This document shows positions 666 to 5,919 of a stretch of 64,000 nucleotides of DNA, in pieces. The position numbers and the translations under genes were made by a program. Source of the stretch: an uncultured Methanoregulaceae archaeon (GTDB taxonomy: Archaea; Halobacteriota; Methanomicrobia; Methanomicrobiales; Methanospirillaceae). Each line of letters opens with the position of its first letter. Position 1 is the stretch's first letter. The notes under the pieces were generated by a model. The model was not told where the DNA came from. It saw nothing but the letters and a program-made list of their open reading frames with translations, and made no database searches. The stretch lies in contig CAVTTL010000001.1 of NCBI GenBank assembly GCA_963737635.1, positions 1,088,001 through 1,152,000 on the forward strand, in the 5' to 3' direction.

Positions 666-1255
666 GCAGTCTCCTTCCGTTGTCCGAAGAGGAAATTTCT
701 CATAAGCGCATCGCCATTGTGTGACAGGATGCTCTCCGGGTGGAACTGCACGCCTTCGATGGGAAATTTCGTATGCCGCACTCCCATGACAAAACCGTCA
801 TCAAGGCTTTCTGCGACGACTTCCAGTTCAGGAGGAAGCGTCTCCTTTTGCGCGACAAGGGAATGGTAGCGGGTGGCGGTAAACGGTGTCGGCAGGCCAG
901 CATATACCCCCTTGCTGTCGTTTTTTATCTCAGAGGTCATCCCGTGCATCAGGTGCCCCGACCGGACGACCCGGCCGCCAAAAGCGGTGCAGATGGCTTG
1001 GTGCCCGAGGCAAACACCGAGAGTCGGGACGGTTTTACTCATCGTATTGAGGACTTCAAGGCAGACACCGGAGTCTTCCGGTGTGCCGGGCCCGGGCGAG
1101 AGAATGATCCGGTCGCAGCAGGTCTTTTCAAGCTTCGAAAGAGGTGTGTCGCAGGTAAACACTACGGGCCGGGCGCCGAGCTTTCCCACCTGCTGGTACA
1201 GGTTGAACGTGAAACTATCGTAACAGTCAACGATGAGTACGGTTGGGATATTCAT
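662..1255 (-). CDS. trpG: Anthranilate synthase component II (glutamine amidotransferase)
   Basis: [32 protein letters not shown] motifs; ATGA overlap with trpE. Confidence 0.96.
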
Positions 1256-2778
1256 GGTACTACCCCGGACTGTTCGATTGCCCTCATCATCGCGGCAGCC
1301 TTGTTCTCGGTCTCGGTCCACTCGTTCTCCGGCACCGAGTCAGCGACGATCCCGGCACCAGCCTGGATGTACGCCCGTGCGTTTTTGACACTCACAGTAC
1401 GGATCGCGATGGCAAACTCGAGGTTCCGGTCAAAGCCAATATAGCCAACGGCACCGGCGTAGATCCCCCGTGCGTCCGGTTCGGTCTCGCTGATGATCTG
1501 CAGGGCCCGGATCTTCGGTGCACCCGAGACCGTTCCTGCCGGGAAGCAGGATTTGAGCGCATCGTAGCAGTCGAGGTGATCCATGAGCATACCGTGCACG
1601 GTCGAGACCATGTGCTGGACATGAGAGAACTTTTCTATACCCATGAATTCGGTGACATCGACCGACCCGAACTTGCAGACCCTGCCGATATCATTTCGTG
1701 CGAGATCGACAAGCATCGTGTGCTCGGCCCGCTCTTTTTTGTCGACCAGCAGTTCCTGTGCAAGCCGTTTGTCTTCGCTGCTGTCGAGGCCTCGGGGCCG
1801 GGTGCCGGCAATAGGGACGGTCGTCACTCGTCGTTTCTCCACCCGCACGAGCATCTCCGGGCTCGCTCCAATTACCTGCTCGTCCCCGAAATCAAGGTAG
1901 TACATGTATGGGCTCGGGTTAATCTTCCGCAAGGCAGCATAAATCGGGAACGGGTCTGAAGCCACCGCACACTCCATTCTTCGCGAAAGCACAGCCTGGA
2001 AGATGTCACCGGCCACGATATGGTCTTTTATCCCATTGACCGCTTGCATGAACGCTTCGCGGCCGGTGTTGTCCGTAACCCCGGGAGGTTTTCTGGCATT
2101 TTTATTTGTTTTTTGCGACGGTGTTTCCGGCGCTGCCGATGCGCCAGCAATAGATGCAATCCGGCCGGCAAGTTCAGCGATATGAGCGGTACAGCGCTGG
2201 TATTCAGCCGTCGGATCGGTATCGTAGGTCAGAAACGGGCTGGAGAAGACAAAAAGCCTGCGATCCCGGTGATCGAAGACAATACAGTCTTTGGTTAGCA
2301 TGAAACGGGCATCGGGAGTCACCTGCGGGGAATGATTCCGGTGATCCGGTACCCGGTCGAAGAGCGCATGAACGATATCGTAGGAGAAGTACCCGACCAT
2401 TCCTCCGAAGAACCGCGGGGCCCTGAGATTGACATAATGGAACCGTGAAAGGATAGACCGGATCCGGTCGACCGGGTTTGATCCTTCAGGTTCGCGGGCA
2501 ATAGCGACAAACGCATCGCTTCCTGTGACAGATATGTCTTGGCCGAGGGTAATTACGCATGCAGGATCGAGCCCGACGTAAGAGTAACGGGCGATCTTTT
2601 CGCTTCCCTCCATGGATTCAAGAAGGAATCCGGTGCCTGTCCGGGTTTTCAAAAATACCTCAAGAGGCGAGCACTGCGGAAACGGGAGTTCGGCGCAGAG
2701 AGGGATCACCAGCGGCTTCGGCTGGTCGGTTACTGCAGTAAGGTATTCCTCTAGTCCGAGGTTAAGTTTAGTTTGCAT
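1252..2778 (-). CDS. trpE: Anthranilate synthase component I
   Basis: LLES, NPSPYM, PIAGTRPRG, EHTMLVDLARND, GTVSGAPKIRA motifs. Confidence 0.97.
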   Translation of the reverse strand: MQTKLNLGLEEYLTAVTDQPKPLVIPLCAELPFPQCSPLEVFLKTRTGTGFLLESMEGSEKIARYSYVGLDPACVITLGQDISVTGSDAFVAIAREPEGSNPVDRIRSILSRFHYVNLRAPRFFGGMVGYFSYDIVHALFDRVPDHRNHSPQVTPDARFMLTKDCIVFDHRDRRLFVFSSPFLTYDTDPTAEYQRCTAHIAELAGRIASIAGASAAPETPSQKTNKNARKPPGVTDNTGREAFMQAVNGIKDHIVAGDIFQAVLSRRMECAVASDPFPIYAALRKINPSPYMYYLDFGDEQVIGASPEMLVRVEKRRVTTVPIAGTRPRGLDSSEDKRLAQELLVDKKERAEHTMLVDLARNDIGRVCKFGSVDVTEFMGIEKFSHVQHMVSTVHGMLMDHLDCYDALKSCFPAGTVSGAPKIRALQIISETEPDARGIYAGAVGYIGFDRNLEFAIAIRTVSVKNARAYIQAGAGIVADSVPENEWTETENKAAAMMRAIEQSGVVP

Positions 2779-2802
2779 AGTATCAGTTTCTTCTCTGTTA
2801 CA

Positions 2803-2895
2803 TCACCAGCAGCCGGATTTCGCGAAGACGGCTAAGGGAGGAACGTGTAGTGTTTTCTTCCCTGTAACCGCTAAATCCGATTTCTGAAGATTCAT
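2803..2895 (-). CDS. Putative trp leader peptide, 30 aa (MNLQKSDLAVTGKKTLHVPPLAVFAKSGCW*)
   Basis: ATG at 2895, single Trp codon immediately before TGA; in frame with and 24 nt upstream of trpE; below the ORF-track size cut-off. Confidence 0.45.
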   Translation of the reverse strand: MNLQKSDLAVTGKKTLHVPPLAVFAKSGCW

Positions 2896-2939
2896 AAGGA
2901 TTCTCAATTACAGATTTGATGCTTAGTTTTGGTTGTTAT

Positions 2940-2955
2940 TGTACATATTTATACA
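2940..2955. promoter_or_regulatory. TrpY-type TRP box pair (TGTACA-N4-TATACA) overlapping a minus-strand TATA box (TATAAATA, 2946-2953)
   Basis: Matches the TGTACA TRP-box consensus known for TrpY in Methanothermobacter; lies upstream of trpE. Confidence 0.7.
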
Positions 2956-3073
2956 TTGTTGTTATATTATGGCAAAAGTCACAAAAACAGCTACCCACTT
3001 TGCGTCTCGACGTATGAAAGAAGGATATTGCCGGAACCCTGACAATCGAGTAAAGAGAAGAAAAAAGGAAGAG

Positions 3074-3445
3074 TTACTCTATTTTTATGCCACGGTTACG
3101 GAGTGCTTCTGCCTTCTTCTTCGAGCATTCCTCACATCGGAACTCAGGGGCTGCATCGTTGCTTTTATCGTAATCCCCGGATCGAACCAGCCGGTACCCC
3201 CGTGCAACCCTACCACAGTCCACACAAGTAATATTCTCTTTTACCTCCCACTGCGTCGCAAACGACTGGGATGTGAAGATGAACTGGTCCACCCAGAAGA
3301 AGATCAGGCCGCCAATAATGTTTGCAATAATAGCAGCGACGAGGTACCCCATCCCTGCAAGGAGGATGCCGACACCGGCAAGGATCGGCGTACTTGCCTG
3401 CCACCGGAGCAGGTAAAGTGCATACCGCTTGAAATTGATCCGCAT
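3074..3445 (-). CDS. Small membrane protein with C-terminal zinc finger (CxxC...CxxC)
   Basis: Two hydrophobic segments, then CVDC and CEEC. Confidence 0.8.
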   Translation of the reverse strand: MRINFKRYALYLLRWQASTPILAGVGILLAGMGYLVAAIIANIIGGLIFFWVDQFIFTSQSFATQWEVKENITCVDCGRVARGYRLVRSGDYDKSNDAAPEFRCEECSKKKAEALRNRGIKIE

Positions 3446-3558
3446 ACAGGAATCATTGGATCCGAGTATTAAAGGAATTGTGCAATTCCTTCGTGCAGTG
3501 GATGAGGACTATATACTCCGCCGACAAAATACTAATAATACACTTGATGTGAGTATCC

Positions 3559-4152
3559 ATGTGGCCGAATAAGCAGCACTCGCTCGGGTGGGTTTTTGTT
3601 TCGCGGATGATTGGAATCATCTGTTTCCTGATCATCGTCGTGCTGGCAAATATCCTGACATTTTATGTGACAAATCCACTTTACCATGCGGGGGTTGATT
3701 TTCTTAACCTGAATTTCTGGCTGCTGATGCTCATCGGTATCATTATTTTTGTCGGCGACATTTTCGGGGCGTTTCCCTTCCCGCTGAACCTGCCAGCCCC
3801 GATCATAAAGGCAATTGGTAGCGTCTTTATCATCGCGTTCGTGCTCCGGGTTTTCGAATGGGTAGACACGGCAACCGGGAACAACATCTACCATTTCTTC
3901 TGGCTGCTTTCCTTTGTGATCGTCCCGATTGTCTTCATAATAGTACTTCTGGCGGGGTACTATGAAATAATCTGCGAACTTTGGGCAAAAGCCAGAATCC
4001 GTGACGAATCTGAAACAGTGGTCCACGCTGCTGACTCCACTCCCTTTATCCAGTCTTCAGCACCGAAATCGTGGGATGACGTGAGTGCAGAATTACGGAT
4101 GATGCTGTACGAGATCATCCACCGGTTCAGGGAAGAGATCAGGAAACATTGA
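3559..4152 (+). CDS. Hypothetical multi-pass membrane protein
   Basis: About 4 TM segments plus a helical C-terminal tail. Confidence 0.8.
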   Translation: MWPNKQHSLGWVFVSRMIGIICFLIIVVLANILTFYVTNPLYHAGVDFLNLNFWLLMLIGIIIFVGDIFGAFPFPLNLPAPIIKAIGSVFIIAFVLRVFEWVDTATGNNIYHFFWLLSFVIVPIVFIIVLLAGYYEIICELWAKARIRDESETVVHAADSTPFIQSSAPKSWDDVSAELRMMLYEIIHRFREEIRKH

Positions 4153-4200
4153 ATCCGGTTGTAGAGTCTGGAGAATCTTGGGAATGGTATAATTATCTCT

Positions 4201-4434
4201 CTACCAATCCGGATTTTCCTCTCTGAATTTCTTTTCTTTTTCTGTGAGTTCTTCAGCGGAAAGGTGTGCAGGCATACAGATGCAGCGATGTTCGATAAAA
4301 ATGCCTTTCCTGAAGCTTCCCTGTGATTCTCCGGTGCGACAGGCGCCATATATGTCAATGTCACAGTCGTGGTAGACCTGCGGGAGATTTTTTTCACGGG
4401 CACATGCCAGCGCTTCATGCCACGATGCAGCCAT
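4201..4434 (-). CDS. Hypothetical 77-aa Cys/His-containing protein
   Basis: Fills an otherwise empty gap, natural composition, 5 Cys. Confidence 0.7.
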   Translation of the reverse strand: MAASWHEALACAREKNLPQVYHDCDIDIYGACRTGESQGSFRKGIFIEHRCICMPAHLSAEELTEKEKKFREENPDW

Positions 4435-4524
4435 GATTGCACTATTGCAGGATCAGGTAATATAACCGAGTAATGAAGCACACGGTATAACCAGAATACT
4501 AAAAAAAGAACAAATTTAATGTAA

Positions 4525-4704
4525 TTAGAACCGGGGTTTCCGGTGCTTTGGCAGGCAGTCCCTGCAGTAAACCGGCCTTCCCTCTGTTGGCTTGAAAGGA
4601 ACTTCGCACTCTTTTCCACAGTCAGAACAGACTGTTTTTGTCATTTCTCTGGGACCGAAATTTCTCGGGCCACCAAATCCTTTTCTTTCCATTGTATTAC
4701 TCAT
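4525..4704 (-). CDS. CxxC-x17-CxxC zinc-ribbon protein (alternative start 4692)
   Basis: Manual translation MERKGFGGPRNFGPREMTKTVCSDCGKECEVPFKPTEGRPVYCRDCLPKHRKPRF*; TTTATA box at 4742-4747 (minus); absent from ORF track. Confidence 0.93.
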   Translation of the reverse strand: MSNTMERKGFGGPRNFGPREMTKTVCSDCGKECEVPFKPTEGRPVYCRDCLPKHRKPRF

Positions 4705-4791
4705 GCAGTTTATATCTGCACATATTCATCACACTATTCAGTATAAATACATCTGCATCGGATCACGATTTCCAGCCGATCCTACGTAATT

Positions 4792-5919
4792 TCAGGGAAT
4801 AATCTCGCAACCATTGAATTTCTCATGGGCAAAATCCGAAAGGTGGATACGATTTGATGCTATAAGGGCCCGTACGCGGGGGAGAGCATCGGTGAGCGCT
4901 TCGTGCAGGTTTTTCACGGTTCCGCATACCAGCCGACGACCAGTCTGGTTCCATGGCTGCATTATGGCAGAGTAGAGGCAGCGCCCGCCGCAGAATGTGC
5001 TGATGGAACAGGTTGTACATTCGCCACTTACCGTAATCCGGGGCAGGTGCTGCGGATCTGCATTCCTGATATGGCCGACATAATAGGTTCTCATCCCGAT
5101 CATTATCGGACACGGTGCGATGTTGCCATCAGTCATGATCGCATAATTTGCATGGCCTGCCCCACACCGAAGGAGGCTATCCCTCCCGTGCAGAAGATCT
5201 TCCATTGGATCGATGAAAGGGTACCAGCGCCTGACCCGGCTGCACTGCTCCATGTCATCGACCCAGGCATTGACAAGAGCACGGATGCCCGGATTATAAT
5301 TTTTGTCTGCCCACTCTGCAAACTGGCGGCGGGAAAGATCCCGGGAGAAGTTTGCATCCATCTGCCAGTGAATTGAAGTAAAGGAGTATTCCGGATTTTC
5401 TGCAAGGTACCGGACCGCGTCGAAAATATCGGTGTGCTCGGTTACCGTCATCCGCGCGATCAGTTCGCCGCGATAGTCGTTTGACCGGATTTTTTTTACG
5501 TTCTCCATCACCCGGGAAAAAACGCCAGCTCCCCGGTTCTCATCGGTGAGGGTTTCGCGCCCGTCAAGCGAGACAAGGATCGTCGAGAACCGGTTAACGG
5601 TCTCCGGGGCAAGCCGGTCGAGAAGGATGCCGTTTGTCTGGATCATAAACTGTTGCACCGGCGCTTCACGGACAATCCGTTCGACCAGTGCTGCCCGAAG
5701 GAGTGGTTCGCCACCATAAAAAGTGAGAGTAGGTGCGGGGTCCCGTGCAAGGAACCGGTAGAGCAGCTCGGGATCGTAACTGAGGTCAGGTGAGAGATCT
5801 GCGTCAATCTCTATCTTCCCTGTTTCGGGAGCTGCCGCGTCTTCCACCTCAAATGCCTTTGCCCGGCAGTACCGGCAGCAAAGGTTGCAGTCATCAGTAA
5901 GGATGAGATGGAAGTACAT
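4792..5919 (-). CDS. Radical SAM/SPASM protein, probably AF0577 (TIGR04084-like) family
   Basis: CNLCCRYC (CxxxCxxC), FYGGEPLL, SPASM Cys CGAG..PCP..CTTC..CGGRC, C-terminal GCEIIP. Confidence 0.88.
   Translation of the reverse strand: MYFHLILTDDCNLCCRYCRAKAFEVEDAAAPETGKIEIDADLSPDLSYDPELLYRFLARDPAPTLTFYGGEPLLRAALVERIVREAPVQQFMIQTNGILLDRLAPETVNRFSTILVSLDGRETLTDENRGAGVFSRVMENVKKIRSNDYRGELIARMTVTEHTDIFDAVRYLAENPEYSFTSIHWQMDANFSRDLSRRQFAEWADKNYNPGIRALVNAWVDDMEQCSRVRRWYPFIDPMEDLLHGRDSLLRCGAGHANYAIMTDGNIAPCPIMIGMRTYYVGHIRNADPQHLPRITVSGECTTCSISTFCGGRCLYSAIMQPWNQTGRRLVCGTVKNLHEALTDALPRVRALIASNRIHLSDFAHEKFNGCEIIP

Follow-up and report, generated by a model that had tools for sequence, protein, structure and literature searches.

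A conserved element at trpE starts in Methanomicrobiales and a covarying trpE leader hairpin in Methanoregula: a tentative case for translational sensing of tryptophan

The control of tryptophan (Trp) synthesis in archaea was described in a 2019 paper as little known beyond TrpY in one methanogen (PMC6737238, in extract). It is at issue whether archaea use amino-acid gauges that are read by the ribosome, and whether CUG 'starts' are sites of initiation or of frame change. Both questions are raised by a stretch of 64,000 nucleotides (nt), hereafter the window, from an uncultured Methanoregulaceae archaeon (contig CAVTTL010000001.1 of assembly GCA_963737635.1), in which the minus-strand interval 2779-2895 directly precedes the anthranilate synthase gene trpE. 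An original prediction, made from the letters of this interval, had proposed a Trp sensor consisting of an upstream open reading frame (uORF) that ends in Trp-UGA and of two mutually exclusive hairpins. Although the window itself appears to hold a decayed version, it led to a single-copy, near-invariant element found at the start of trpE in roughly half of the searched Methanomicrobiales genomes, and to a leader hairpin that covaries in one clade of Methanoregula. From sequence comparison we tentatively favour a translational Trp gauge based on leader open reading frames (ORFs), which would act on top of a TrpY-like operator and of which the window would carry a weakened copy.

The gene downstream of the interval is a 508-amino-acid ORF (1252-2778, minus strand, ATG at 2778) identified as anthranilate synthase component I, TrpE, by model TIGR00564 (526.1 bits against a cut-off of 517.7). 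The window comes from a Methanoregula species, in which the trpE-trpG-trpD mRNA would have a 5' leader of approximately 145 nt; the interval 2779-2895 forms the middle and 3' portion of this leader. Contigs from a run of another study matched positions 2650-2926 letter for letter, and the sequence there is therefore no assembly slip.

Loci containing trpE were collected from 40 relatives and 80 public records, yielding 91 distinct 5' regions (numbered with L below). In relatives, the motif GGUGAUG extends to GGUGAUGCC-NN-UGG-NM-UGG, placed on the trpE start (for example, L005:1480-1500, L118 and L121). Read as codons, this element forms a mini-ORF that encodes Met-Pro-(Val/Met/Leu)-x-Trp and a tail of variable length (0-14 codons); its UGG overlaps the AUG or CUG start of trpE. 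A strict pattern, GATGCCRGTGGAMTGG, was present in 80 of 155 Methanomicrobiales genomes (at least 95% complete), with one copy in each, and the reversed control gave one match; in the six families sampled it was found in 30/79, 1/3, 3/15, 25/31, 7/10 and 14/16 genomes. A looser pattern, GTGATGCCNNTGGNNTGG, matched 76 of 110 genomes (control, 0), a still looser earlier pattern 201 of 401, and a loose regular expression detected the element in 44 of the 91 unique trpE loci. Eighteen of 20 sampled matches, all of the consensus form, opened a frame with an Anth_synt_I_N domain (17 above the Pfam cut-off and one at 18 bits); the remaining two were non-consensus chance matches, one in an MCM gene and one in an unassigned frame. 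No comparable mini-ORF was seen when 20 trpE 5' regions of further orders within the phylum were inspected; frames and starts were uncertain there, and the expected N-terminus contained several in-frame stops. The element occurs in two contexts: some copies are preceded by the operator and a short leader, and others follow immediately on a TrpB-like gene (NF009057, 731 bits). In the latter, Methanoculleus-type operons, the UGA of the TrpB-like gene is the UGA of GGUGAUG, and uORF stops are placed likewise in Methanoregula.

The Pro codon of the mini-ORF varies synonymously (CCG, CCA or CCC), and conservation of the element stops exactly past UGG, where the second codon of trpE is always GNN and specifies at least four different amino acids. 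Together, the synonymous Pro codon and the edge at UGG point to a mini-ORF frame that matters. The trpE frame opens with AUG in 46 and with CUG in 34 of the 80 genomes. G or T at the first base of this triplet was encountered in three matches among 218 genomes, and these may be read as second loci, since the same genomes hold a consensus element elsewhere. At nine of the 44 loci that carry the element, each of them a CUG-type locus (L007, L027, L028, L029, L058, L059, L082, L090 and L109), no in-frame ATG, GTG or TTG precedes the conserved TrpE core. The sequence GGUGAU(G)CCGG can pair with the 3' tail of 16S rRNA (CUGGAUCACC) through 10 base pairs with one bulge at -14.2 kcal/mol. As the sole cause of the conservation, this pairing is weakened by the CCC and CCCC variants, which disrupt its extended part and retain Pro. 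The possibility that codon 3 of the mini-ORF (NUG) is the true, well-spaced trpE start was dropped, CUG standing at codon 3 in 7 of 78 matches to GTGATGCCNNTGGNNTGG.

In the window's own genome, none of the three element patterns had a match. The site of the element reads GGUGAUG-UAA-CAGAGAAGAAACUGAUACU-AUG, and alignment with L031, L002 and others identified GGUGAUG plus UAA (2798-2807, minus strand) as a remnant in which the mini-ORF is cut to AUG-UAA. The start at the ancestral position, AUG-GAG in L031 and L002, is GAA in the window, and the AUG of the window stands where L031 has AUU. The 24 nt that follow the uORF stop (2779-2802, minus strand) correspond by homology to the opening codons of trpE in relatives (EETDT against METDI) and contain no Shine-Dalgarno motif at a working distance from the trpE ATG. 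The alignment thus indicates an element that has decayed in the window, where trpE uses a new ATG five codons downstream. What survives appears to be the outer half of the device only, that is, the hairpin, the uORF and the terminal UGG-UGA. With the core gone, Trp sensing by this copy is probably weakened or lost.

The uORF itself was confirmed by reading the minus strand. It comprises 30 codons, MNLQKSDLAVTGKKTLHVPPLAVFAKSGCW, from the ATG at 2895 to the UGA at 2805-2803, and its sole Trp codon (TGG, 2808-2806) directly precedes the stop. Eight sense codons (TGT AAC AGA GAA GAA ACT GAT ACT) then lead in the same frame to the trpE ATG at 2778. The predicted overlap of the stop with a GGUGA motif and a minimal AUG-UAA ORF is likewise present (GGTGATG at 2807-2801, ATG-TAA at 2803-2798). 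When the leader was shuffled 20,000 times, a closed ATG-started ORF of at least 30 codons arose in 5.5% of cases and such an ORF with a terminal TGG in 0.085%, the latter figure being post hoc.

The relatives repeatedly have leader ORFs in which Trp codons fall at, or adjacent to, the ribosome-binding site of trpE, and uORFs ending in Trp-UGA or Trp-UAG were found in L031, L034, L096, L002, L006, L008, L058 and L059. In L031, one of the most similar leaders (approximately 86% TrpE identity) and the closest that carries the element, MKSGWW ends on the same UGA as the uORF of the window. Most of 14 aligned leaders (those of the 13 nearest relatives and the window) contain ORFs across the hairpin described below, which do not amount to one conserved gene. 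The uORFs positionally homologous to that of the window differ in sequence, in frame linkage and in their last residue: L034 encodes MMPVPVLIVQAGTFTHLVPARGTFIQTVGW, whereas the endings are YVSW in L096, LKIW before a UAG stop in L002, FSGW in the GUG-started uORF of L006, YKIR in L005, VVNT in L007 and FPNN in L039. The differences extend throughout, for example between LAVTGKKTLHVPPLAV in the window and QAGTFTHLVPARGT in L034. In L033 and L038 the frame is shifted by a 2-nt deletion in the hairpin loop, in L036 and L099 the uORF frame is fused in frame into the mini-ORF, and in L106 the hairpin-crossing uORF enters trpE without a stop. Depending on the species, then, the homologous uORF enters the frame of UGG-UGA, of the mini-ORF or of trpE, and the UGG-UGA of the window was brought into the trpE frame by a 1-nt length difference. 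The frame linkage to which the original prediction had attached meaning is accordingly a one-in-three case. The UGG-UGA of the window lies at and just 5' of the conserved UGGUGAUG; TGG precedes TGA in 22 of 29 promoter-type loci with GGUGAUG, and an ORF that would read this TGG exists in just 7 of them if it must start with ATG, and in 13 if any start is allowed. The recurrent Trp-stop endings are therefore largely explained by the conserved nucleotides UGGUGAUG.

Some further leaders deserve mention in their own right. If translated, the read-in of the L106 uORF and a 1-nt insertion in L039, which places the mini-ORF AUG in the trpE frame (MPIGMD...), would each give an N-terminally extended TrpE. 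Trp-rich leader uORFs include MNRNPESRWWTAMKKPCVSR in L013, the MKSGWW of L031 and MRCWTTLWTVMPVDWTLH in L056 and L077; among the leaders listed, WW occurs in L031 and L013 only. In the close relative L032 (85% identity) the element is absent and, as read by eye, trpE has no canonical in-frame start; about 75 nt before the TrpE core, AAGGAG is followed by ATC and ATT at Shine-Dalgarno distance. In many genomes of family f5, GATGCCGATGGGCTGG occurs once per genome at a second locus other than trpE (for example, G148:C1:2437301) and probably belongs to the conserved coding sequence of a different gene.

The helices listed for the leader in the original prediction are all complementary. The long hairpin (2814-2879, minus strand) consists of an inner part (2871-2828) that is the homolog of the leader hairpin P2 of the relatives and of an outer stem, CGGAUUU/AAAUCCG. 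When the folding ensemble was computed, this hairpin dominated the predicted fold of the leader: it was present in the minimum-energy structure of the 165-nt leader, with pair probabilities of 0.84-0.99 apart from one pair at 0.20. Folded alone it reached -23.4 kcal/mol (z = -3.2 against 1000 mononucleotide shuffles, 0.5% of which were as stable). The stability of the whole 165-nt leader corresponded to z = -1.69, 13 of 200 shuffles folding equally well. The competing fold, complementary on paper, was 10.5 kcal/mol worse (-25.9 against -36.4 kcal/mol), with pair probabilities of at most 0.01. It was rejected on this penalty and on its lack of conservation, the UGUAAC arm being unique to the decayed stretch of this genome.

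In the leaders of the 13 nearest relatives a hairpin occupies the same place. Across the 14 aligned leaders the fixed structure paired 84.4% of cells, compared with 29-56% when the partner was slid by 1-3 columns, and 7 of 12 pairs varied on both sides. The covariation score was 0.303, against a shuffle mean of 0.212, and was reached by none of 500 shuffles. The stems are GCGGUUACAGGGA/UCCCUUAGCCGU in the window and GGGCAGGAAC/GUUCCUGCCC in most relatives, and the loop CACACACCUC is kept in 12 of the 14 leaders, the window having it only in part (ACACUACACG). As stems and encoded peptides both differ while pairing persists, selection acts on the shape of the RNA. A covariance model with a stem of 10-12 base pairs (R1) scored the window copy at 26.2 bits (E = 1.6e-5), a score that is not independent, the window being part of the training set. 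Conservation in relatives thus supports the hairpin stem among the nearest Methanoregula and fails to support the uORF peptide, its frame, the terminal Trp and the competing fold.

Upstream of the leader, the sequence TGTATAAATATGTACA (2940-2955, minus strand) combines a TATA box (2953-2946) with an inverted repeat, TGTA-N8-TACA, in which the TATA box is contained. Archaeal transcription usually starts approximately 23 nt downstream of the TATA box. By this spacing the trpE transcript would begin near 2923, giving the leader length of about 145 nt. TGTATAAATATGTACA has only one exact copy in the genome, that before trpE; the sole near copy, TGTATATATTTGTACA, lies outside the window, 30 nt 5' of the ATG of the TrpB-like gene trpB2 (G000:C1:933077). 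An operator-like motif common to trpE and trpB2 suggests that the two form one regulon. The motif precedes trpE in nearly all Methanoregula loci and in the promoter-type loci of other families. The trpB2 gene behind the near copy has almost no leader.

Transcription termination in archaea requires oligo-U. No U-tract follows the hairpin, as had been noted in the original prediction, and no U-run was found anywhere in the leader. Transcription attenuation is therefore unlikely, and any control at this level would act on translation, in place of the factor-dependent termination that had been offered as an option. Ribosomes on leader ORFs would open the hairpin and, led on through UGAUG overlap or fusion, would meet Trp codons that coincide with the trpE ribosome-binding site or flank it. 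Initiation at trpE could then depend on how much charged tRNA-Trp is available, and a TrpY-like protein would repress at the operator, beneath this leader-level control.

Several observations weigh against such a gauge. The near-identical uORFs of L008 (MQLPGNRQLMVW, ending in Trp) and L045 (MQLPGNRQLMVR, ending in Arg) differ in their last residue alone, an exchange that also tells against the terminal Trp-UGA as the sensor originally proposed. An ATG-started, Trp-containing uORF is absent in 41 of the 76 leaders listed, mainly of Methanoregula. Within the mini-ORF, codon 4 is variable as an amino acid (Glu, Asp, Gly, Arg or Val) and codon 3 is NUG with all four bases at N, a pattern that would fit a constraint purely at the RNA level equally well. 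On the 3' side of UGG it is the trpE frame that codes, with entropies by codon position of 0.73/1.39/1.70, compared with 1.65/1.66/1.43 upstream. Among the 91 loci, model R1 matched the 14 training leaders, L098 and, in part, L042, and no others, so that the hairpin is a clade-specific leader element of Methanoregula. The uORF of the window lacks a clear Shine-Dalgarno motif, and 24 nt separate its UGA from the trpE ATG; in pairs from Haloferax and Escherichia coli a gap of about 20 nt nearly abolishes termination-reinitiation (PMC10666635, in extract). Finally, by simple geometry a ribosome stalled at the mini-ORF UGG would hide the trpE start and lower TrpE when Trp is scarce. A rise in TrpE on Trp shortage would consequently need a hypothetical extra step, a frame change or drop-off with re-start. 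Partial precedents exist in the frameshifting of E. coli at hungry codons (PMC5009743, in extract) and in the translation-aborting ORF mgtQ of Salmonella (PMC8092293, in extract).

The explanation that survives best beside the leader-based gauge, and which we regard as a serious though somewhat unlikely alternative, places all control in transcription. A TrpY-like repressor at TGTA-N8-TACA would sense Trp, the hairpin would serve mRNA stability or folding, the element would be a ribosome-binding site of unusual strength before an AUG or CUG start, and the leader ORFs and their Trp codons would be by-products. The operator shared between trpE and trpB2 is in keeping with this, as is the fact that no control of archaeal trp genes is documented apart from that by TrpY at TRP boxes (PMC6737238, in extract). 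The pairing of GGUGAU(G)CCGG with the 16S tail would make a strong ribosome-binding site, coding periodicity in the trpE frame begins directly after (A/C)UG, the UGG could result from a start codon followed by a G-initial second codon, and the frame, length and last residue of the uORFs vary, as by-products would. Against this, the covariation of the hairpin reflects selection on the leader RNA itself, and a ribosome-binding site would not normally keep its 9-nt spacer unchanged over six families with TrpE about 50% identical. The restriction of the start triplet to AUG and CUG, never GUG or UUG, and the preservation of Pro in variants that break the 16S pairing are not accounted for either.

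A more specific form of translational control, which we consider unlikely as it stands, is that the five-codon mini-ORF Met-Pro-x-x-Trp over the trpE start gauges Trp throughout Methanomicrobiales, TrpE being made exactly when Trp is short. Under scarcity of charged tRNA-Trp, the ribosome would wait at UGG with a four-residue peptide and would pass to the trpE frame through a -1 frameshift or, after drop-off of the peptidyl-tRNA, through a re-start. If true, this would account for CUG in 34 of 80 genomes and for the loci without a canonical start, as well as for the edge of conservation at UGG and for the feeding of ribosomes from upstream frames through UGAUG. The window would then represent a device in decay, with the hairpin and the Trp-UGA uORF left, the core lost and a new AUG recruited.

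We assign a low probability to a third explanation, in which the hairpin with its conserved loop CACACACCUC, or the UGG-rich element, binds a Trp-activated protein (TRAP-like), a ligand or a tRNA (riboswitch- or T-box-like) and the ORFs are irrelevant. A loop that persists in 12 of 14 leaders over covarying stems would suit a binding site. The element, too, does not vary at any of the three codon positions and contains UGG-NM-UGG, often after a third UGG, and its A/C-only position suggests a rule at the level of nucleic acid. However, a scan of window positions 2500-3300 against Rfam gave no match at E values up to 10, and scans of six relatives' loci returned only a tRNA gene in L112 and an overlapping sub-threshold tRNA-like match, with no cis-regulatory family. 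Duplex energies of the element with 50 tRNAs predicted by ARAGORN, a set without tRNA-Trp, revealed no preferred partner. The hairpin is moreover confined to one Methanoregula clade, and no protein is known as a candidate for the binding.

The model of the original prediction as written, in which a stall at the last-codon Trp or read-through of the UGA switches the hairpins and controls trpE translation or factor-dependent termination, appears the least probable of all: every feature it names exists, the uORF is in frame with trpE, Trp-stop endings recur in eight relatives' leaders and Trp-tRNA reads a leader UGA in the bacterial precedent PepNL (PMC11890864, in extract), but the exchange of Trp for Arg in near-identical uORFs, the varying frame linkage, the energetic penalty of a competing fold with a genome-specific arm and a peptide unconserved where arrest would require conservation all oppose it, and both 3' partners of the competing helix would sit inside the footprint of a ribosome stalled at 2808-2806. 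What stands of it is a structured trpE leader in which leader-ORF Trp codons may matter; the terminal Trp-UGA sensor, the in-frame relation and the switching hairpins do not.

Of the other genes in this part of the window, all on the minus strand, those downstream of trpE in the same operon are trpG (662-1321) and trpD, of which the window includes only the start (3-665). Upstream of the trpE region there is a radical SAM/SPASM gene (4792-5919; TIGR04084, 268 bits), behind which come three ORFs that match no family (3960-4619, 3532-4026 and 3074-3445), the last of which, co-directional with the leader and next to it, had no match in NCBIfam or Pfam. The region 3074-5919 may be a peptide-modification cluster.

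Among the papers listed on archaeal leader peptides, uORFs and TrpY, none had a description of an archaeal trp leader ORF in its title or the opening of its abstract. The closest formal parallel to the leader-based gauge is attenuation of the E. coli trpL type (RF00513), with which the window shares a short ORF with a Trp codon in a structured leader directly 5' of trpE, the ribosome being the presumed reader of Trp. It differs in having an archaeal host, neither an intrinsic terminator nor a U-tract, and no Rfam match. The Trp codons of trpL are tandem and internal, whereas the uORF of the window has a single one at its end, and the mutually exclusive antiterminator of trpL contrasts with an alternative fold that is unsupported in the window, where any effect would be on translation initiation.

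In Methanothermobacter thermautotrophicus the TRP box has the consensus TGTACA, and trpB2 is a target of TrpY. In the window's genome, likewise, an operator-like inverted repeat of the TGTACA type overlaps the trpE promoter, and the motif also precedes trpB2. Repression by TrpY at TRP boxes in that organism is summarized in PMC6737238 (in extract). Unlike that system, no divergent trpY adjoins trpE in the window, where the neighbor is the co-directional ORF at 3074-3445, and control by TrpY leaves a structured leader of 145 nt unexplained. Termination-reinitiation at UGAUG or AUGA overlaps (PMC6728339 and PMC10666635, both in extract) is resembled by the relatives, in which the AUG of the mini-ORF shares bases with a stop codon, either that of trpB2 or that of a leader uORF, and the window keeps the UGAUG. 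In such systems stop and start overlap or lie a few nt apart, whereas in the window the sole start that the uORF UGA overlaps is that of AUG-UAA, so that the re-start AUG is met at once by UAA and the trpE AUG lies 24 nt beyond the uORF stop.

PepNL of E. coli, in which arrest at a UGA is relieved by read-through with Trp-tRNA, shares with the window a short leader ORF ending in UGA, but depends on a specific nascent peptide (PMC11890864, in extract). Arrest leaders such as TnaC and PepNL have a conserved arrest peptide, while the peptide of the window uORF is unconserved and its Trp-UGA ending is not fixed. The mgtQ ORF of Salmonella (PMC8092293, in extract) frees a sequestered ribosome-binding site, whereas the mini-ORF of Methanomicrobiales overlaps the start itself, would involve Trp only by inference and is missing from the window. 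The two are nevertheless alike in composition: mgtQ is a tiny ORF with early Asp, Glu or Pro codons, at which destabilization of the ribosome aids downstream translation, and the mini-ORF reads Met-Pro-Val-Asp/Glu-Trp.

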